A stretch of DNA of 46,874 bases from a phage. The notes beneath the pieces are model-generated. The model saw nothing but the letters and a program-made list of their open reading frames with translations, was not told the origin of the DNA and did no database searches. The translations under genes and the position numbers were made by a program. Of this stretch, positions 5,218-19,659 are shown one piece after another. Where the stretch lies: sequence record PZ445467.1. One strand, 5' to 3'. Numbering within the stretch: the first letter of the stretch is position 1; each line of letters begins with the position of its first letter.

Positions 5218-5826
5218 TTAATCATCAAGTTTCACGCCGGGAATTTTGCCTGCTGCGATGGCTTCATAAATTAGCTTAGCCTCATCCTCGCGCTTGTAAT
5301 CTTGCGCTACCATTTCTAATACCGCGCAGATAGATTCAAGTACAGCCTCATGCTTCCTTTCTGCTTCTGTGCGAAATGGGATGAAAACATCCTTATTGGA
5401 TGGGGTTATTGCGTAGTAAATCTCACCAGATGGTCTGATAACTATTTTTTCGCCATCAAGACCAATAACCTTGACTTTTCCCCATGACGTTCCGTTGCTG
5501 ATATACTCACATTCACACCCAACTGGCGGCAGTCCTTCTCCGTTCCATGCTGAATTTTTCGATGCTGCGAGTGCTGCTTTGTATTGCCAATAGGTTACTA
5601 TCGACTCCTTATGGTCGGAAGATAATTGCGTAGCCCATTCTTCTCCATACCAGAAATGCACAAGGCTATTTCCTGTGTGATGTTTCCATGAGAACCCATC
5701 ATAGTGTGGGTCATTTGTGTCCCATGCGCACAGCGAACCGTCATTATCTTGAGTAATTGACAGCGCGTTTTGAGGCCACCAACCACGCTTAGGCAATTCT
5801 TGAACTAACAGGTCGATAAGTTTCAT
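5218..5826 (-). CDS. hypothetical protein (202 aa)
   Basis: ATG preceded by GGAGAA; last gene of a four-gene leftward block. Confidence 0.55.
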   Translation of the reverse strand: MKLIDLLVQELPKRGWWPQNALSITQDNDGSLCAWDTNDPHYDGFSWKHHTGNSLVHFWYGEEWATQLSSDHKESIVTYWQYKAALAASKNSAWNGEGLPPVGCECEYISNGTSWGKVKVIGLDGEKIVIRPSGEIYYAITPSNKDVFIPFRTEAERKHEAVLESICAVLEMVAQDYKREDEAKLIYEAIAAGKIPGVKLDD

Positions 5827-6577: not shown

Positions 6578-6856
6578 ATGAAACTATCGCAACGCGGCAT
6601 GGAGGTGTTTGGAATTACCGATGCCGTAGATATATCGCCTTACATCACCACTGAGACAACACAGAATCAGTTTGATGCGCTGACAAGCCTTGCCACCGAC
6701 ATCGGCATTGACTCGTTCCGCAAATCAACGCTTCTGAAGAAACACAATCTCCGCTGCTTCTCATGTGTCGTCGCGCATTTCATCGTGTGGGGTGAGAAGA
6801 CTGGCGACAAAGCAAAATGCAAGGCTGAAAAAGAGGTTTACTGGTATGGCTATTAG
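6578..6856 (+). pseudogene. 5'-truncated GH24 (T4/P22 gp19-type) lysozyme remnant, 92 aa
   Basis: QNQFDALTSL...IGIDSFRKSTLLKKHNL resembles the C-terminal half of P22-type lysozymes; N-terminal catalytic region absent; intact SD and ATG. Confidence 0.45.
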
Positions 6857-7310
6857 CAAAAACATGAAGGCGTTTCTGGATATGCTGGCGTACAGCGAGG
6901 GCACTGATAACGGGCGGCAGAAAACCAATAATCATGGTTATGATGTGATTGTTGGCGGCTCACTGTTTACCGACTATTCCGATCACCCGCGCAAGCTGAT
7001 TAGCCTGCCTAAGCTGGGCATCAAATCCACTGCCGCCGGGCGCTATCAGGTGCTGGCTAAATTTTATGATGCGTACAAAAAGCAACTGCGCCTGCCTGAC
7101 TTCTCCCCCGCGTCACAGGACGCTATCGCAATGCAACTAATCCGTGAATGCAAAGCCACCGCCGATATTGAGACTGGTCGCATTGCTGATGCTATCCATA
7201 AATGCCGCTCCCGCTGGGCTTCATTACCGGGCGCTGGCTATGGTCAGCATGAGCAGAAGCTGGATAAGTTGATTCAGGTATACAAAGAGGCTGGCGGAGC
7301 TGTGGCATGA
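6846..7310 (+). CDS. endolysin, lambda R-type lytic transglycosylase
   Basis: 154 aa; FLDMLAYSEGTDNGRQKT.NHGYDVIVGG.LFTDYSDHPR and WASLPGAGYGQ closely match lambda R; GAGG SD. Confidence 0.9.
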   Translation: MAISKNMKAFLDMLAYSEGTDNGRQKTNNHGYDVIVGGSLFTDYSDHPRKLISLPKLGIKSTAAGRYQVLAKFYDAYKKQLRLPDFSPASQDAIAMQLIRECKATADIETGRIADAIHKCRSRWASLPGAGYGQHEQKLDKLIQVYKEAGGAVA

Positions 7311-7546
7311 AAAAGCTAAGCAACTGGCTGCTCGGCGCGTGGATTTCATTCTGCTCACTATTGCAGCTATGGCCTGATGCAATGATGCACGTGTGGGTAA
7401 TGATGCCGGACGACCTGAAAGCGGCGCTACCGCCAATCGTGGTCAAAGGTGTAAGCTACTCCATCATGCTGGTTGGTATTCTCGGAAAAATGCACGGCAT
7501 GAGGAAGGAGAACCGGAGGCTGCGCAATGATGTCAATTCTCGCTAA
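7307..7546 (+). CDS. small membrane protein with two hydrophobic segments and basic C-terminus (holin/antiholin candidate)
   Basis: ATGA overlap with endolysin stop, GGAG SD; sits between endolysin and spanins. Confidence 0.4.
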   Translation: MKKLSNWLLGAWISFCSLLQLWPDAMMHVWVMMPDDLKAALPPIVVKGVSYSIMLVGILGKMHGMRKENRRLRNDVNSR

Positions 7547-8018
7547 ATACTGGCGACCACTGGCAATTATTATAATTGTTGTCTCTGGCGCGTTGTGGGC
7601 GCGTAGCGAAATCATCAGCTACGGCGACCAACGATACGCAGAAGGCAAATCCCAAGCAATCGCCGAACAGAAGGCCGCAGACGAACAAGAGGAGCAACGA
7701 CGCAATGCAGAACTGCAAAAGATTCAGGCTGACGCACAGCAAAGGATTGACGCTGCGCGCAATGATGCTGTCAATGCTGCTGCTAAGTCTGGCAGGTTGC
7801 AGCAACAGCTCGCAAATATCCGCAAGCAGCTCGTCGGATATTCCACCGCTGAGTCCATTGGCAATCCAGCCGCAGAAACCGGAGTTTTGCTTGGAGACGT
7901 GCTCGGCAAATCTGTCGAAAGAAATCGACAACTGGCAGATTATGCTGACAGGGCAAGAGAGGCAGGATTAGCGTGTGAGGCGCAGTATAATTCGCTGCGT
8001 AATAAAAAAGCCCCGTGA
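7527..8018 (+). CDS. Rz: i-spanin (Rz-like)
   Basis: N-terminal TM segment then Ala/Gln-rich coiled-coil region; GGAGG SD; follows endolysin. Confidence 0.65.
   Translation: MMSILAKYWRPLAIIIIVVSGALWARSEIISYGDQRYAEGKSQAIAEQKAADEQEEQRRNAELQKIQADAQQRIDAARNDAVNAAAKSGRLQQQLANIRKQLVGYSTAESIGNPAAETGVLLGDVLGKSVERNRQLADYADRAREAGLACEAQYNSLRNKKAP
7762..7971 (+). CDS. Rz1: o-spanin (Rz1-like lipoprotein) embedded in +1 frame of Rz
   Basis: MMLSMLLLSLAGC lipobox signal, Pro/Ser-rich 69 aa, wholly inside Rz. Confidence 0.55.
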   Translation: MMLSMLLLSLAGCSNSSQISASSSSDIPPLSPLAIQPQKPEFCLETCSANLSKEIDNWQIMLTGQERQD

Positions 8019-8686: not shown

Positions 8687-9117
8687 TATTTAATCTCCAG
8701 TTCTTTTGCGCGAATTGCGCTGTCAATGATGTCTTGCAAATCCTGTTCGCGCGATTTATGTCCGCGCTCGCCAGCCTGTAATGCCTTCTTGATTAAGTGC
8801 TGCAATGCAGGGTTGGTGACATTCCACGCCATGAGCACATCGTATACGTCAACAAATATACCCGGCTTAATCTCGTGCAGGTATTTGTTATCAGCCTCAG
8901 GAGCGCCAATGCAATCATTGAGGTCTTGTTCGTCGGTAATTGGCTCGCGGTATGCAATAACAACATCCCCGCGACCCTCAATCACTTCAATGCGATCAGC
9001 ATAATATTTGCTTAGATAGAAAATCTCACCAGTCCTTTCTGACTTAACTACAAGATAAGCCGCGTTATGGCCAGCAAAATCATCCTCATAACCTTTCAGA
9101 TATTTCCATTTTTTCAT
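8686..9117 (-). CDS. conserved phage protein of unknown function (143 aa)
   Basis: ORF coupled to neighbours; C-terminal AxQHxIKK...RGxK-like signature, family not verified. Confidence 0.5.
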   Translation of the reverse strand: MKKWKYLKGYEDDFAGHNAAYLVVKSERTGEIFYLSKYYADRIEVIEGRGDVVIAYREPITDEQDLNDCIGAPEADNKYLHEIKPGIFVDVYDVLMAWNVTNPALQHLIKKALQAGERGHKSREQDLQDIIDSAIRAKELEIK

Positions 9118-9308
9118 TTCATCGTCACCCGATTATTTTCATCAACATTAAAATTATCACGAATCAAATCGTACATCTCATCCTTCGGCATATCAGCCAG
9201 CGCCACATAGCAACGGGCAAAGTAGCGAACATCACGGAGTGTCAGCGGCTGCCGCTTCTCCACAATGCTGGTGATAATGTCCATCGGCTCGCGTCGTGGT
9301 CTTGGCAT
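9114..9308 (-). CDS. hypothetical protein (64 aa), first gene of leftward block
   Basis: ATG preceded by AGGAG. Confidence 0.5.
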   Translation of the reverse strand: MPRPRREPMDIITSIVEKRQPLTLRDVRYFARCYVALADMPKDEMYDLIRDNFNVDENNRVTMK

Positions 9309-15349: not shown

Positions 15350-15886
15350 CTACAGACGCATCGGCATAACAACAATCTTAGCAGTCTCGCCAGATGGCGC
15401 ATTAAGACAGCAAACTGCGGCATTTGTGTTTCCATTAAGTTCAAATTTGATACAACTGAATTTAGGATTAAACAGCTTCGCCACTTTCTCAACGTCAACC
15501 AGATATCCAGCATTGAAGCCAATTTCCTCTGCTGGCAAGGTCTGCTTCGGAATGACGCGATCAATATCAGGGAATCGCCCGTCAATCTCTTCACAGATAC
15601 CAGCACCAACCATAACGCCAGCTTCATCATGATACGTTGCAATTTTCGACTTTGTATCAATGATGGCGTAGTCATAGCGTTTTGTTGGTGACTTGCCAAT
15701 CTTGATAATCACATTTTCTGTAAGATTATTATCATGGTTTCCACCAATAAATGCGCGATGACCGTCAGTTGATGCAATACGACCATCAGGCATAAAGCAA
15801 ATGCCATTCAGGTAATATCGCACATCGTTGCGCGCCTGAAATATTAATGCTGATTCAAGTAATAGTTTGCCGATTTTTAGTTTCAT
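15350..15886 (-). CDS. truncated DNA polymerase III beta sliding clamp (DnaN) homolog, 178 aa
   Basis: blocks DVRYYLNG, TDGHR, DGRFPD..RV.PK, EIGFN..Y..DV and C-terminal VVMPMRL match E. coli DnaN domain II and the end of domain III; domain I absent. Confidence 0.7.
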   Translation of the reverse strand: MKLKIGKLLLESALIFQARNDVRYYLNGICFMPDGRIASTDGHRAFIGGNHDNNLTENVIIKIGKSPTKRYDYAIIDTKSKIATYHDEAGVMVGAGICEEIDGRFPDIDRVIPKQTLPAEEIGFNAGYLVDVEKVAKLFNPKFSCIKFELNGNTNAAVCCLNAPSGETAKIVVMPMRL

Positions 15887-16059
15887 CACTTCACCTTAAT
15901 CATATGCTGTTTTGCAACCTTCAGGCACTCCTCAAAAATGCCACCCTTCTTTGCGCTCTGATTGCGCTTGTAATACTGAACTGCCGCATCAATTGCCATC
16001 TGGTCGATTTCAGGCAGTTTGGTACGTAGTTGTTTTTCAATGAATTGTTCTGGTGTCAT
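15886..16059 (-). CDS. hypothetical protein (57 aa)
   Basis: ATG with TAATG overlap to MTase stop; stop overlaps DnaN-like start. Confidence 0.4.
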   Translation of the reverse strand: MTPEQFIEKQLRTKLPEIDQMAIDAAVQYYKRNQSAKKGGIFEECLKVAKQHMIKVK

Positions 16060-16856
16060 TAAACGGACCTCATGAATGCTTTAATGAATTCTGCTGCGAC
16101 TTGTGGAACTATGGCATTGCCATAACCGCGCAATCGTCCCACTCTTGCGGATACCCCATGAGTTGCCTCGCAAAATCCGCCTGGTATGACTCTAGTTTCC
16201 TTATCTGCTCCATGGTTGGGTTTCCATGAATCCCATAAACATGAAGCCACATCTGGCGATAAAGAGTATCGTTCCTGAATTTTCCGTCCTTTCTGTAAAA
16301 TGTCTTGCTGAGATCCCCGTAATCCTTCCATCCTCGCGCCGTTGGTGTCGCCCATCCTCGCGCCAAAGATGATTCTTTTCCTTTCCTGTGGAGAGCCGAC
16401 GCTGCAAGCTGGCAATACTGACGCCCCGCAGGCGTAGCCTTTGTCTTCCAGGTTAAGGAATACAAAATCGAGCCAGTGCTTCCCAATTGCTGCTGCAACC
16501 TGCTCTCCAAACAGCAATTCAGGCTTGCACTCTCTGATGAGCCTGAGAAATGCTGGGGCAAGGTGTCGATCGTCGTCAAATCCGAGAGACTTACCGGCAA
16601 CGCTAAACGGCTGGCAAGGTGGTGATCCTGTCCAGAGTCGAGTGCTTTCTGGTATTCCTGCCAGCTGGAGTGCAAGGGGCCACCCTCCGATTCCGGCAAA
16701 GAAGTGACACTGTGTAAATCCTTCCAGGTCTGAAGGGGTGACTTCGGTGATTGATCGTTCATCGACATATCCGTAAGGAATTAGTTTATTGTTAATTAAT
16801 TCACGCAGCCATGCCGCTGCGCCCTTGTCCCACTCATTGTAATAGTGGACCATCAT
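16059..16856 (-). CDS. DNA (cytosine-5)-methyltransferase, orphan; TRD/motif IX appear to lie in the +1 frame
   Basis: frame A has FAGIGG (I), PPCQPFSVAG (IV), GEQV (VI), QERKR (VIII), GNAIVPQVAAEF (X); overlapping ORF 16109..16768 carries IRKL...ARQLMGYP (motif IX-like). Confidence 0.7.
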   Translation of the reverse strand: MMVHYYNEWDKGAAAWLRELINNKLIPYGYVDERSITEVTPSDLEGFTQCHFFAGIGGWPLALQLAGIPESTRLWTGSPPCQPFSVAGKSLGFDDDRHLAPAFLRLIRECKPELLFGEQVAAAIGKHWLDFVFLNLEDKGYACGASVLPACSVGSPQERKRIIFGARMGDTNGARMEGLRGSQQDILQKGRKIQERYSLSPDVASCLWDSWKPNHGADKETRVIPGGFCEATHGVSARVGRLRGYGNAIVPQVAAEFIKAFMRSV

Positions 16857-17665
16857 CACATCTTCTCCAGAATTGCCATCACCTCGTGAATATCAGCAAC
16901 AGGAATCTGGATAAACTCCTCATTCTCTGCCACTACATGACCAGCAGGAAGAATAACGTGGTCAGCTGGCTTCAGTAACTCAATCAGTCGGTCTACTGGC
17001 TTAATCTTTTTCGACTTAAGCACCTTCGCCGTTACCTTATCCTTGCCTTGCGCCTTCGCTTCTTCGACTGCCTCGTCGATAACTTTAACCGCATCATCGC
17101 CATGTTCGCGAGTTACTGCTACGGCATTTGCATAGCTGATTTGCCCTGCACTGATTCGCGCTTTTACTTCGGCTGGCACATCACCCAGTGACAGGTGCAT
17201 CTGCACGTCAGAAACTGAGCGCCCTACCTTCTTGGCGATTTCCTCGTTGGTCCAGCCAAAACCCTTCAGTCGCGTGTAAGCCTTTGCGCGTTCAAACGGG
17301 TCAAGCTGCTTACCCTGACTGGACGACACCATGAAGGCGATTTTATCTGCTTCGCCTCCTGTGAAATCCTTGCACTCAATACGAACAATTGGTGCGCCAC
17401 GCTCAATGGCACGCAACGCTCCGAGATAGCGATGCTGACCATCAAGAATGCGGATTCCCTTCTCGTCTGGAATAACTGTTAATGCTGGCAATGGCTGACC
17501 TGACTCCCAGCACTGCGCGAAATACTCCACATGCTGCTCATCTGCTTCGCGGATGTTGTATCCTGGTTCCAGATAGATTTGCTCAACTGGCACGAGATAT
17601 GTCTTGTTTACCGCGATTCCGTTGCGCGTTTCTTTGTCTGAATAGATTTTGCTTAGTGTTTTCAT
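16856..17665 (-). CDS. ParB-like nuclease/partition-domain protein (269 aa)
   Basis: ILDGQHRYLGA ParB-box-like segment followed by a likely HTH region; GAGGAG SD; stop overlaps MTase start. Confidence 0.55.
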   Translation of the reverse strand: MKTLSKIYSDKETRNGIAVNKTYLVPVEQIYLEPGYNIREADEQHVEYFAQCWESGQPLPALTVIPDEKGIRILDGQHRYLGALRAIERGAPIVRIECKDFTGGEADKIAFMVSSSQGKQLDPFERAKAYTRLKGFGWTNEEIAKKVGRSVSDVQMHLSLGDVPAEVKARISAGQISYANAVAVTREHGDDAVKVIDEAVEEAKAQGKDKVTAKVLKSKKIKPVDRLIELLKPADHVILPAGHVVAENEEFIQIPVADIHEVMAILEKM

Positions 17666-17668
17666 TGT

Positions 17669-18292
17669 TTACTCCTCATCACCGGAATTAGCAATATCGT
17701 AAAACTGACCGTATGTTATCTGCTTAAAGTTATCAGGTATCGTTACCTGTCCATGACCTTCACCTTTTGTATTTGGCACGGCAAAAATCAGGCAATCATC
17801 CTTTTGCGGGTGTTTGCCGCCATGAGTAGACAGCATTGCAAAACCAAATCCGCGACCAGATTGCTCTCCGATTCCGGTGCGTGCGATGCCATAATGATTA
17901 ACAATATAGTCTTTCCATTCTGGCAATAACTTTAATTTCTCGTTTGCCTCGCGCATCACCGCGTCCAGATTTTTGTTGTATTCCCGCCCGTCTTTTGTGT
18001 TTCCTTTTCCGCGAGCCACGATTACACGCTGACCATCCAAGAACTCTTCGCGCTTTATTGTCACAGGGCACGGAAATTCAAACTGCTTACTCCACACAAA
18101 GCTCTCAAGTAAGCCACCACCGACTGCTCCCCAGCTACGTGTCGTGGTGAAAGCGATAGCGCCAACCTTTTTCATGGCGTCGCCAAGAACTTCATTGCGG
18201 CGCTTTTGGATGTCATCATATGCGTCAATAACTTTCTTAACATCAGCACCTTCAACCATGTAATAATCATAATGTTTTGCATTGCTGCTCAT
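17669..18292 (-). CDS. hypothetical protein (207 aa), first gene of leftward operon
   Basis: ATG 18292 is 8 nt after GAGGTGA; track ORF extends to 18310. Confidence 0.5.
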   Translation of the reverse strand: MSSNAKHYDYYMVEGADVKKVIDAYDDIQKRRNEVLGDAMKKVGAIAFTTTRSWGAVGGGLLESFVWSKQFEFPCPVTIKREEFLDGQRVIVARGKGNTKDGREYNKNLDAVMREANEKLKLLPEWKDYIVNHYGIARTGIGEQSGRGFGFAMLSTHGGKHPQKDDCLIFAVPNTKGEGHGQVTIPDNFKQITYGQFYDIANSGDEE

Positions 18293-18310
18293 CTTCATCA
18301 CCTCTAGCAT

Positions 18311-18409
18311 TTATTGTTGTTTCTACGTCACTAACTATAAACGCCACATCAATCTACGTCAACAGGAATATGCTAAAATCATGCTAATCAAAAAACAGGA
18401 GATTTGAGC
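18311..18409. promoter_or_regulatory. divergent promoter region with two ATCTAC motif copies
   Basis: motifs at 18319-18331 and 18350-18363; TGCTAAAAT extended -10 at 18371-18379; AGGAG SD before ATG 18410. Confidence 0.5.
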
Positions 18410-18529
18410 ATGGGTTCAACAAACGGTCCTTCTCGTTCGCGCGCTACTGGAAATACCAAAACTGGCGGAAAAACTGGCGCAGTTAAGCCAAACGGTTCCA
18501 CCCGTTCACCATCGCGCGGGAAGAAATAA
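18410..18529 (+). CDS. small basic Ser/Thr/Gly-rich protein (39 aa)
   Basis: ATG 9 nt after AGGAG; TAATG coupling to next gene. Confidence 0.4.
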   Translation: MGSTNGPSRSRATGNTKTGGKTGAVKPNGSTRSPSRGKK

Positions 18530-18969
18530 TGTTCGGCGCAGACATTGCCATCATGATCATGTATGTGCTGGGTTTTGCCTGCACGGGCATGGTTGCGTTT
18601 CTGGTGTTCATTCCGGCAATGGCGATGTCTGTGTATCTTGGATGGGTGCTTGCTGATTCATTTCCCGCCGAATATCTGTATTACCTTGCGCAGTCTATGG
18701 TCTGGCTATTCCCGGCTATTGCACTGCGCAAAAGTACAAAAATGGCGCTCTGCGTGCTGACGATGAGCCTTTACGAATGGCTGGTAGCGATAGAGTCATT
18801 CGTATGGGAATTTATCACGCCTGTAGAAACGCCGCTTCATGCGCAGTACGCATTTATTATTATCGGCATCCATCTGTTCATCCTTTCCATCACTTTTAAA
18901 TGGGGCGGCGAAATTGGACATTATTCTTGGCGTGGTCGCCATTGTTTTTTCGCTGATTCAAGTCTATAA
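18529..18969 (+). CDS. multi-pass membrane protein (146 aa)
   Basis: about four hydrophobic segments; translationally coupled to the upstream small ORF. Confidence 0.5.
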   Translation: MFGADIAIMIMYVLGFACTGMVAFLVFIPAMAMSVYLGWVLADSFPAEYLYYLAQSMVWLFPAIALRKSTKMALCVLTMSLYEWLVAIESFVWEFITPVETPLHAQYAFIIIGIHLFILSITFKWGGEIGHYSWRGRHCFFADSSL

Positions 18970-19001
18970 GTGCTGGAAACATATCATCAGCGAGACACGC
19001 A

Positions 19002-19286
19002 ATGAACGAAACACTAAGGCAGGCAGCAGAGCAAGTTATAAGCGGGACGACAGGACAGGTGATTGACAAGGCTGGATATGCCTCCATTGGTACTGGTATT
19101 GGACTGAAAGTTGCAGAGCAAACGCCTGTCACGCAGTCTTATTTTGAGGCTATGATTCCACACAGTCTGACGGAGTGGGCGGCAGTAGCGTCAATCCTTG
19201 GCGCTCTGTCTCTGGTAATAAAGAACCTGTTTGAAATGTGGTGGAAAGTCCGGGAGTCAAAGAGAAATGACAGCACCAACACCTGA
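19002..19286 (+). CDS. holin-like protein (T7 gp17.5-like architecture)
   Basis: 94 aa; IGTGIG segment, one TM segment (WAAVASILGALSLVIKNLF), basic C-terminus KVRESKRND. Confidence 0.35.
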   Translation: MNETLRQAAEQVISGTTGQVIDKAGYASIGTGIGLKVAEQTPVTQSYFEAMIPHSLTEWAAVASILGALSLVIKNLFEMWWKVRESKRNDSTNT

Positions 19287-19659
19287 AGAACTGGTCAGCC
19301 AAATGGCGAATCGCGGAATGACCATCACCACAACAGATGCGTCTGGCATTCTGTGTCTTGTGGCGTCAATCAGTGAATGCCTTGAGCTGAACTACCCCAA
19401 TGATGAATGCCGGCAAAATGCGATCATGCTGTGGGCTTCCATCCTGATTAGCGCAAATACCGCAGGGCGCTACGTCACCAGTCAGAGCGCACCATCTGGC
19501 GCATCGCAATCATTCGCTTATGGCAGCAAGCCGTGGGTGGCGCTGTACAATCAGATGAAGCTACTGGATACGGCAGGATGCACTGGCGATTTGGTGGAAG
19601 ACCCTGACGGAAGCGGTAAGCCGTGGTTTGCGGTTGTGCGTGGGAGTAAGTGTAAATGA
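19267..19659 (+). CDS. head-tail connector/adaptor protein (putative)
   Basis: ATG 19267 after GGGAG; first of four coupled genes preceding the major tail gene. Confidence 0.4.
   Translation: MTAPTPEELVSQMANRGMTITTTDASGILCLVASISECLELNYPNDECRQNAIMLWASILISANTAGRYVTSQSAPSGASQSFAYGSKPWVALYNQMKLLDTAGCTGDLVEDPDGSGKPWFAVVRGSKCK

Follow-up and report, generated by a model that had tools for sequence, protein, structure and literature searches.

A three-gene cluster at the capsid/head-tail junction

The DNA analysed here is a phage sequence of 46,874 nucleotides (PZ445467.1; 'the window' denotes this whole stretch), and our subject is a cluster of three small genes at 18410-19286, encoding proteins of 39, 146 and 94 amino acids (p39, p146 and p94; Table 1). 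An initial annotation, made by reading the sequence, had proposed that p94 is a holin like gp17.5 of T7, preceded by a 39-residue basic protein and a four-transmembrane (four-TM) protein, and the corresponding open reading frames (ORFs) are all present and co-oriented. As judged from nucleotide identity, the phage is an Akiravirus/Skatevirus-like virulent siphophage with relatives of about 46 kb. The 4-kb stretch around the cluster is 99.4% identical to Escherichia phage ClaudiaMuster_Bas77 (hereafter Bas77) over the aligned 84% of the query, but identity falls to about 90% in comparisons with Salmonella phages Akira, KFS-SE2 and STGO-35-1 and with the Skatevirus group, seszw among them.

The first protein, p39, is rich in Gly, Ser, Thr, Lys and Arg and is indeed basic, with nine Lys and Arg residues, no Asp or Glu and no TM segment. 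An AGGAG sequence at 18397-18401 precedes its start codon, and its stop codon overlaps the start of p146 (TAATG). In p146, hydrophobic spans at residues 1-42, 52-66, 72-99 and 103-125 correspond by hydropathy to four or five TM segments, which agrees with the four-TM topology that had been proposed, while no Pfam, NCBIfam or PADLOC family matched this protein. We rejected its annotation as a lipoprotein as an artefact, because VLGFAC lacks a canonical lipobox context and residues 1-7 contain no Lys or Arg.

The features first noticed in p94 were also borne out: IGTGIG occupies residues 29-34, a strong TM segment lies at about residues 57-77, and the protein ends in a basic tail (EMWWKVRESKRNDSTNT; basic residues K82, R84, K87 and R88). 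The protein begins with an amphipathic N-terminal part, followed by a Gly/Ala/Ser/Thr-rich segment at residues 24-38 (IDKAGYASIGTGIG) ahead of the TM segment. Small size, at least one TM domain (TMD) and a highly charged basic C-terminus, by which holins are recognized, are thus combined in p94. The hydropathy of segment 24-38 is below 1.5 on the Kyte-Doolittle scale, and reaches 1.52-1.63, enough for a TM segment, in the homologues of L015, L022 and L026 (L-numbers denote loci, that is, contigs encoding p94 homologues; L005 is Paraglaciecola virus JLT2, L006 is wild-type seszw and L008 is the mutant seszw_60L, MZ375305.1). An AlphaFold2 model of p94, built from a 39-sequence alignment, has a mean predicted local distance difference test score of 59.5; it is confident only for a helix at residues 56-91 and gives a low-confidence helix at residues 24-38.

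All three are real genes rather than chance ORFs, and all are under purifying selection, which is strong for p39 and p94. The differences from Akira and seszw number 10-12 synonymous and 0-1 non-synonymous in p39, and 19-24 and 1-2, respectively, in p94, while the non-synonymous/synonymous divergence ratio (pN/pS) for p146 is 0.18-0.29; each of the three genes is annotated in relatives. We also observed that the p146 DNA is 97% identical to that of Akira and seszw, as against 89-93% for the flanking p39, p94 and DUF7370 genes, and that its synonymous divergence is 0.06-0.08 compared with about 0.3 for neighbouring genes. This suggests either a recent recombinational exchange or constraint at the nucleotide level.

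Upstream of p39, the sequence TGcTAAAAT is a candidate extended -10 element for the rightward unit and is kept in Akira, seszw and Bas77. A simple sigma-70 scan did not call it, as no -35 element is present, and promoter-like counts in the region of the cluster were not above those of shuffled sequences. A terminator-like hairpin at 18928-18941, inside p146, was not used because hairpin counts were likewise not above shuffles. Scans against NCBIfam, Rfam and defence or exclusion libraries gave no matches.

Probable distant kinship of p94 with the class II holins

Sequence comparisons make a remote kinship of p94 with the class II holin superfamily probable, closer to the phage 21 pinholin than to the T7 holin. 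Its single Pfam hit is to PF04971 (phage 21 S), at 15.3 bits and E 0.021 over residues 55-90, which lies below the 26-bit cut-off. Close relatives of p94 make up a narrow family, with 68 clusters at 61% identity or more, and a profile search of 1.84 billion representatives recovered remote members at 21-43% identity, which we label with P-numbers. These share an N-terminal motif (IDKxGYxSIGxGxG or HxISDxGNVIASKxxTWFGVASIxTG), followed by a variable loop, a TM segment that starts with (L/I)x(E/D)(W/Y)AA and contains G(A/G) and IKN, and then a basic tail. When 22 family members were scanned singly, the sub-threshold hits were to holin families only, namely PF04971 for 5 of the 22, PF10746 (T7) for two besides T7 itself, and PF16080 (HP1) for three. 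The best match to PF04971 was that of P0075 (19.5 bits, E 9.8e-4), in which residues 29-90 align to profile positions 7-61 and both hydrophobic regions are covered. P0076 matches phrog_20 'holin' at 1.4e-6 and phrog_4237 at 2.4e-4. No loci came to light when viral contigs were searched with three remote members and genome contigs with P0219.

Profile-profile comparison with hhalign, for which we used family alignments of 30 (A4) and 39 (A7) sequences, gave phage 21 S as the best match of the p94 family, at 27.1% with A4 and 68.5% (E 4.6e-5) with A7. The match extends over 34-38 columns, comprises the second TMD (TMD2) and the tail, and aligns WWKVRESKR to YFKIREDRR. The match to T7 gp17.5 was 37.7% (E 3.4e-4) with A4 and 0.9% with A7. 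Both A4 scores (24.1 and 22.8) exceeded those of 100 out of 100 shuffles in which the N-terminal, TM and tail blocks were preserved (mean 10-11, standard deviation 2, maximum 17), and the phage 21 S score rose from 22.8 with A4 to 30.7 with A7. Values of 1% or less were obtained for the controls, namely the 79-residue holin of the window, Rz and two further TM proteins encoded nearby, and P2 Y.

The first proposal for p94 therefore survives in part: its holin-like nature is weakly supported, but its specific likeness to T7 gp17.5 is not. We dropped the strict T7 label because the BLASTP alignment (E 0.67) covers just SL(T/N)EW..AA and because p94 has no hit to the T7 holin profile, PF10746, at E<=1 (gathering score, 25.4 bits). 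The best family member other than T7 reaches 11.5 bits against this profile (P0081, E 0.24), compared with 7.5e-38 for T7 gp17.5 itself. Pfam calls the T7 family 'holin superfamily II'; phage 21 S belongs to the same superfamily. On these comparisons, p94 is not a demonstrable member of either PF04971 or PF10746.

The resemblance to phage 21 S (S21 68/71) can also be followed along the protein. Both are small, with a Gly/Ala/Ser/Thr-rich first segment after 'DK', a second TM segment that begins (E/Q)WAA(V/I) and contains LG(A/S)L, and a tail of the form (W/Y)(W/F)K(V/I)RE(S/D)(K/R)R. However, p94 has about 20 extra N-terminal residues, a longer loop between the helices and no dual-start motif, and the charged nature of this extension argues against release of TMD1 from the membrane. 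The settings differ as well, since phage 21 has neither the upstream multi-TM gene nor the micro-ORF seen beside p94, and the window has no SAR (signal-anchor-release) endolysin adjacent to p94. With T7 gp17.5, p94 shares GTG(I/V), SL(T/N)EW before the TM segment, a W-K-basic tail and a location among late structural genes, far from the endolysin, but gp17.5 is shorter by 27 residues and T7 carries no partner genes.

The three genes recur as a module in unrelated phages

The grouping of the 39-residue and four-TM genes with p94, made in the initial annotation, is strongly supported by comparison between phages. In 10 of 13 distinct contexts a multi-TM gene (140-162 amino acids, 3-5 TM segments) directly precedes the p94 homologue; these are the group of the window, JLT2, L011, L013, L014, L015, L016, L022/L023, L024 and L027. 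The morphotypes concerned are unrelated: some of the phages are siphophages that have DUF6260 capsids together with DUF7370, others are P22-like podophages, and there are also a myophage with a Mu-type baseplate and a lambdoid phage. The three genes form a conserved module, which in our preferred reading is a single, horizontally mobile functional unit of the membrane.

The third element is a micro-ORF of 16-32 codons, rich in Lys and Arg and usually uncalled, whose stop codon abuts or overlaps the start of the multi-TM gene. It was found in JLT2, L011, L013-L016, L022, L024 and L027, with translations such as MSGTGGAGGTRPPKKKRKTSKPKK, MAGTSQKPREKKPTGTGKKTKK, MASPRQKPRQKTDTDKPKKK, MAVSQQPERPEKPPVTQNTKKPKK and MTGTSQKPREKKPANTQKKPAKK, which often begin M(A/S)(G/S)(T/S)xQKP. 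The micro-ORFs are uncalled in the metagenomic contigs, and the JLT2 version is called as gp27, a gene of 47 codons. An automated scan of the six-frame ORFs of at least 80 amino acids at these loci found an abutting basic micro-ORF at 9 of 310, six of which are the multi-TM partner genes, leaving only three among the other ~300 ORFs. In L022, the gene caller had merged the region of the micro-ORF into a spurious 177-residue gene.

The multi-TM gene is conserved in architecture and position only. The partners in L013, L014 and L015 are mutually homologous by BLASTP, and those in L016, L024 and L027 are alike by eye, but these proteins are not detectably homologous to the partners in JLT2 and L011. 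Homology of p146 itself to the remote partners was considered and rejected, as phmmer found nothing and hhalign gave 1.4%. Three homologues of p94 (in L010, L012 and L026) have neither a multi-TM partner nor a micro-ORF, so that a small p94-like protein can exist alone; the L010 homologue is a lone rightward gene within a leftward block of early genes. The module, and especially its micro-ORF, appears to be undescribed in the annotations that we examined and in limited literature searches.

The p94-like gene is sometimes found beside peptidoglycan hydrolases

In three of the 13 contexts (JLT2, L024 and L011) no more than about 1.2 kb separates the p94-like gene from a gene for a peptidoglycan hydrolase, and in two of these (JLT2 and L024) it overlaps the hydrolase gene. 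The module of JLT2 (gp27-gp29) closes the row of tail genes, and gp29 overlaps the start of gp30, a DUF5675 protein that is the sole annotated peptidoglycan-acting candidate in that genome. DUF5675 has been grouped structurally with C82 peptidases as candidate lysins (2026 preprint). In L024 the module follows tail-fibre genes, the p94 homologue overlaps the start of a gene whose product resembles Peptidase_M15_4 (E 7e-5, slightly short of the cut-off), and no other TM protein was called in the ~1.7 kb of contig downstream. This protein contains H-x-x-x-x-x-x-D and D-x-P-H-F-E stretches, which we take to be the metal-binding motifs of the Peptidase_M15_4 class of endolysins. In L011 a GH24 lysozyme is followed by a 163-residue single-TM protein and then by the module. 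As a separate observation, JLT2 gp31 (L005 5614-5994) and the protein at L011 3818-4309 are both membrane proteins that flank putative endolysins, with a soluble Gly-rich N-terminus and one or more C-terminal TM segments; neither has a match to a holin family, and they may be further holin or spanin-like components.

Elsewhere the neighbours are different. The module of L022/L023 lies between the nin/Dam region and the gene for the small terminase subunit, with no hydrolase adjacent to it; in lambdoid phages this slot holds the lysis genes. The p94-like gene of the window, L012-L016 and L026 is placed between the genes for the capsid and those for head completion, where it often borders a leftward accessory island, and the order p94-like gene, DUF7370 gene recurs in L012 and L013. 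The leftward islands of L013, L014 and L016 are analogous to the block at 15350-18310 of the window and occupy the same capsid/head-tail junction. The association of the p94-like gene with endolysins is therefore real but partial.

The window has a complete lysis cassette away from the module

The p94 gene is not adjacent to an endolysin gene in the window; the endolysin gene lies 11.7 kb upstream, close to the 12 kb first estimated, and opens a complete cassette at 6846-8018 that also includes a class II holin and an Rz/Rz1 spanin pair (Table 1). Hydropathy shows no N-terminal TM or SAR segment in the endolysin, and the second two-TM candidate that had been noticed between the endolysin and Rz is the 79-residue holin at 7307-7546. 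The same set of a class II holin, a transglycosylase endolysin and an embedded spanin pair was described in the Skate genome announcement by a phage-lysis group (PMC6606912).

Relatives of the 79-residue protein adjoin endolysins in phages of Pseudomonas, Burkholderia and Xanthomonas, groups that are missing from the named organisms with p94 hits even at E<=10 (three small groups of hits being unnamed), and this family thus appears to serve as a holin in phages without p94. Which protein triggers lysis had initially been left unclear. We can narrow this to the 79-residue protein as the likelier primary holin, since it belongs to a holin-annotated family, stands beside endolysins elsewhere and completes a standard cassette; antiholin or exclusion roles are conceivable for the other genes.

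Overlapping the start of the endolysin gene is a 92-residue ORF whose sole content is the C-terminal portion of a GH24 (T4/P22-type) lysozyme. This ORF is maintained throughout the phage group and is partly deleted in the viable mutant seszw_290L, and its domain content suggests either a relic of an endolysin since replaced or an orphan domain. Speculatively, p94, being pinholin-like, may once have partnered the lost enzyme, provided that this was a SAR lysozyme.

Viable mutants of seszw and virion proteomics

A CRISPR-based genome-reduction study of seszw deposited dozens of viable mutants (PMC9825161). In seszw, genes 20 and 21 correspond to p146 and p94, and genes 75-78 to the lysozyme fragment, lysin, 79-residue holin and Rz. 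We aligned three mutants (290L, 60L and 70L) to the wild type and considered 180S as a fourth. The gene for p146 is precisely deleted (wild-type 8759-9191) in seszw_290L, 60L and 70L, and p146 is therefore dispensable for plaque formation. The 36.5-kb genome of seszw_290L is the second smallest that we saw; a mutant of 35,993 bp also exists.

The p94 gene itself is intact in 290L, apart from M79V, and is altered in the other three mutants. In 60L (L008, locus 2014-2400; wild-type L006 9337), a 1-nt deletion shifts the frame at codon 36, and the shifted frame runs to a TGA, which shares bases with the Met52 ATG (ATGA). By its sequence this is an ideal re-initiation site, from which a 43-residue TM-and-tail fragment could be made. 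In 70L the frame is shifted at codon 16, and a GTG at Val20 opens an annotated ORF of 75 amino acids, while in 180S residues 1-25 of p39 are joined in frame to residues 30-94 of p94; both alleles leave the C-terminal two-thirds of p94 in frame behind a start codon. The TM segment and tail thus stay translatable in all three altered alleles, and for this reason we withdrew an earlier conclusion that p94 as a whole is dispensable. These alleles show dispensability for the N-terminus of p94 only. Salmonella records matching p94 and the 79-residue holin are equal in number (128 each), which suggests that no mutant has lost p94 entirely, and the 79-residue holin is intact in every seszw mutant listed. 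Finally, mass spectrometry of STGO-35-1 virions identified 18 proteins, and the homologues of p39, p146 and p94 were not detected (PMC8954984), which counts weakly against a structural role.

A possible auxiliary role in lysis timing

The reading that we favour, and to which we would give an even chance, is that the module is an auxiliary unit for lysis timing, holin/antiholin-like in character, and is not the primary endolysin-releasing holin of this phage. We regard the module as accessory here because the cassette at 6846-8018 is complete and because viable mutants have p146 deleted and p94 frameshifted or N-terminally fused.

In such a scheme, TGcTAAAAT could allow transcription of the rightward unit by the host polymerase. 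Translation of p39 would start from its strong Shine-Dalgarno sequence, and termination at TAATG would couple the translation of p146 to it, probably setting the level of p146. Both p146 and p94 would insert into the inner membrane, where p94 would accumulate, with its basic tail predicted to be cytoplasmic. By analogy with the behaviour of the phage 21 pinholin, the Gly/Ala/Ser/Thr-rich first segment may hold p94 inactive for as long as it is associated with the membrane or with p146, which would be the membrane partner or antiholin of p94 in the way that LysA is for P2. On release, the second TM segment of p94 would oligomerize through its small-residue face (A60, S64, G67 and A68), giving small holes through which the proton motive force would be lost. 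Canonical holins trigger on depolarization, and so collapse of the proton motive force by p94, or a restraint that p94 places on triggering, would set or sharpen the firing of the 79-residue holin, after which the soluble endolysin could escape and the spanins would complete lysis. In phages of the L024 type, the module may be the sole holin system.

Several known systems offer precedents. In P2 (Y/LysA), phiO1205 and Burkholderia P2-like phages, a separate protein of 3-4 TM segments and about 113-141 amino acids is encoded beside a small holin, in a late operon between head and tail genes, and LysA of P2 is a separate antiholin with four TM segments (PMC3091744). P2 lysA is annotated as non-essential and affects the timing of lysis, which parallels the dispensable p146 beside p94; p146 is also of the ~140-residue class, with four or five hydrophobic spans compared with four in LysA. 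The order of multi-TM gene, small holin-like gene and endolysin gene in L024 and JLT2 likewise parallels the P2-type pairs. However, P2 Y is a class I holin with three TM segments, P2 has no basic micro-ORF, and p146 was rejected as a homologue of LysA (no BLASTP hit; hhalign, 0.1%). Phage P1 has several holin-like proteins, including a pinholin, that are encoded in separate places and cooperate, with contributions that depend on the host and conditions (PMC9025707). Its LydA, LydB, LydC and LydD are a precedent for multiple holins dispersed over unlinked operons, although P1, unlike the phage of the window, uses a SAR endolysin. We count these dispersed systems (P1, P2 LysA and T7) in favour of an auxiliary lysis module, together with the holin-family similarity of p94, the conservation of the module, its occasional place beside hydrolase genes and the strong purifying selection on p39 and p94.

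A number of points weigh against this reading. In 10 of the 13 contexts the p94-like gene is not beside an endolysin gene, and its usual place, the capsid/head-completion junction, is a common site for accessory genes. The window and L011 each have another holin candidate beside the endolysin, so that lysis can be explained without the module. Pinholins normally pair with SAR endolysins, whereas this endolysin is soluble. No family threshold was reached in the searches with p94; the similarity is confined to TMD2 and the tail, over 34-40 columns, and the hhalign match to T7 collapses with the larger alignment. The first segment of p94 in the window is below TM hydropathy, and the AlphaFold2 model has low confidence for residues 1-55. 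As compared by sequence, p146 has no similarity to P2 LysA, and the remote multi-TM partners are not demonstrably homologous to p146.

The strongest competing explanation, which we nevertheless consider rather unlikely, is that the module is unrelated to lysis and has a moron-type function in the membrane, such as superinfection exclusion, anti-defence or takeover of the host membrane, with the likeness to holins reflecting a shared helix scaffold. The PHROG class of p94 is indeed 'moron, auxiliary metabolic gene and host takeover', and the module lies at the edge of a variable accessory island at the capsid/head-completion junction in the window, L013, L014 and L016. The module also has a candidate extended -10 promoter of host type to itself, laboratory mutants can dispense with p146, and the N-terminal motif (IDKxGYxSIGxGxG / HxISDxGNVIASK) is more conserved than would be expected of holins, whose sequences are usually very diverse. 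Against this, no PADLOC defence family was matched at E<=0.1 by p39, p146, p94 or six homologues and partners, and the database similarities that were found are to holin families only. Moreover, the three contexts with a nearby hydrolase gene are independent of one another, and exclusion genes mostly vary and are confined to particular lineages, unlike this module, which occurs across very different phages.

It is improbable, in our view, that p94 is instead the principal holin, as gp17.5 is in T7, with the 79-residue protein acting as an antiholin or second holin. Such a role would suit the holin-superfamily-like features of p94, the T7 precedent of an unlinked holin among late genes, and the position of the L024 and JLT2 homologues, which fill the holin slot directly upstream of a putative endolysin. 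It would also accommodate the retention of a translatable TM-and-tail part in all three altered seszw alleles and the equal numbers of Salmonella records. The 79-residue protein, however, belongs to a holin-annotated family that is found beside endolysins in phage groups not named for p94 (with the three unnamed groups as a reservation), its Skate counterpart was called a class II holin by annotators of phage lysis, and mutants with a disrupted full-length p94 still form plaques. For a soluble lambda-R-type endolysin the holes must be large, whereas the closest relatives of p94 are pinholins.

Very improbable indeed is a role for p94, with or without p146, as a membrane-anchored morphogenesis factor in head completion or head-tail joining: p94 homologues do lie directly upstream of the DUF7370 gene in the window, L012 and L013, directly (L015) or about 2 kb (L014) upstream of a Phage_stabilise (P22 gp10-like) gene, and, in L016, upstream of a 149-residue gene with a PF20557 DnaT_2 hit, the first in a row of late genes whose last member is a weak tail-terminator match, but the gene is placed elsewhere in JLT2, L010, L011, L022, L024 and L027, its homologue was not among the 18 STGO-35-1 virion proteins detected, and we know of no precedent for an inner-membrane requirement in the head-tail joining of such siphophages.

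Returning to an auxiliary lysis-timing unit, a broader proposal is possible, which we offer tentatively. The unit may be a widely mobile second-holin system, that is, a self-contained depolarizing timer with its own inhibitor and a coupled Lys-rich micro-protein, which phages of several morphotypes would adopt as their sole holin (L024 and JLT2) or as an auxiliary trigger acting upstream of a canonical holin (this phage); the micro-protein would then be a new kind of lysis regulator. The timing of lysis sets burst size and fitness, and is relevant to therapeutic siphophages of Salmonella, E. coli and Klebsiella. At present these genes are annotated as 'lipoprotein', 'membrane protein' or 'hypothetical', and the micro-ORF is ignored in metagenomic contigs. 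Recognition of the module would provide a cheap experimental target in a tractable phage, as the 99% identical Bas77 is part of the BASEL collection, and would flag a conserved class of micro-ORFs that gene callers overlook. It would also add to recent evidence from P1 and mycobacteriophage D29 that the genes for lysis control are often dispersed and redundant.

Neighbouring genes and gene order

By correspondence with the annotation of Bas77, the gene order of the window runs from terminase and portal through a leftward accessory block, the lysis cassette and further small genes to the scaffold, decoration and major capsid genes, and then through a second leftward accessory block, ending at 18310, to the rightward module and the head-tail and tail genes. 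The features discussed above are collected in Table 1.

Table 1. Features of the window and of loci encoding p94 homologues (coordinates are those of the window unless a locus is named)
Feature	Position	Strand	Remarks
92-aa ORF, C-terminal part only of GH24 lysozyme	6578-6856	+	PF00959 positions 55-114 of 125, E 4.5e-10; phrog_10457 'endolysin'
Endolysin, lambda-R-type	6846-7310	+	phrog_90 at 2.2e-57; annotated endolysin in Bas77, transglycosylase in Skate
79-aa class II holin	7307-7546	+	Two TM, basic tail; phrog_13249 'holin' 3.3e-52; PF25612 DUF7940 39.2 bits (cut-off 27)
Rz-type i-spanin	7527-8018	+	phrog_312 at 5.4e-50; PF10721 at 1.7e-30; N-terminal TM
Rz1-type o-spanin	7765-7971	+	Pro-rich, lipobox LSLAGC; embedded in Rz, +1 frame
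Second leftward accessory block	15350-18310	-	RusA-like resolvase, DNA methyltransferase, ParB-like, EaC-like; between major capsid and head-tail genes
213-aa EaC-like gene	17669-18310	-	phrog_2260/22326; present likewise in Akira
Sigma-70-like promoter TTGACG-17-TATAGT	18334-18362	-	For divergent leftward accessory genes; promoter scan; conserved among relatives
Candidate extended -10 element TGcTAAAAT	18371-18379	+	For rightward unit p39-p146-p94-head/tail; read from sequence
p39	18410-18529	+	39 aa, first gene of module; phrog_34767 at 1.1e-25
p146	18529-18969	+	146 aa, predicted inner-membrane protein, basic C-tail; phrog_14688 at 1.2e-94
p94	19002-19286	+	94 aa, class-II-holin-like; phrog_13738 at 1.4e-60
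DUF7370 protein	19267-19659	+	phrog_786; 'head to tail adaptor' in two relatives' records; overlaps p94 3' end by 20 nt
Lys-rich micro-ORFs	L011 4481-4555; L014 4457-4525; L015 4502-4564; L022 5500-5550; L024 5433-5507; L027 ~5412-5483; L005 4388-4531
p94 homologues without multi-TM partner and micro-ORF	L010 5001-5315; L012 5001-5288; L026 5001-5339

At the site of the EaC-like gene, the otherwise 99% identical Bas77 has a different pair of genes, an 'anti-restriction protein' and a small hypothetical gene. From the sequences compared, this difference is a mosaic swap that adjoins the promoter region of the module.

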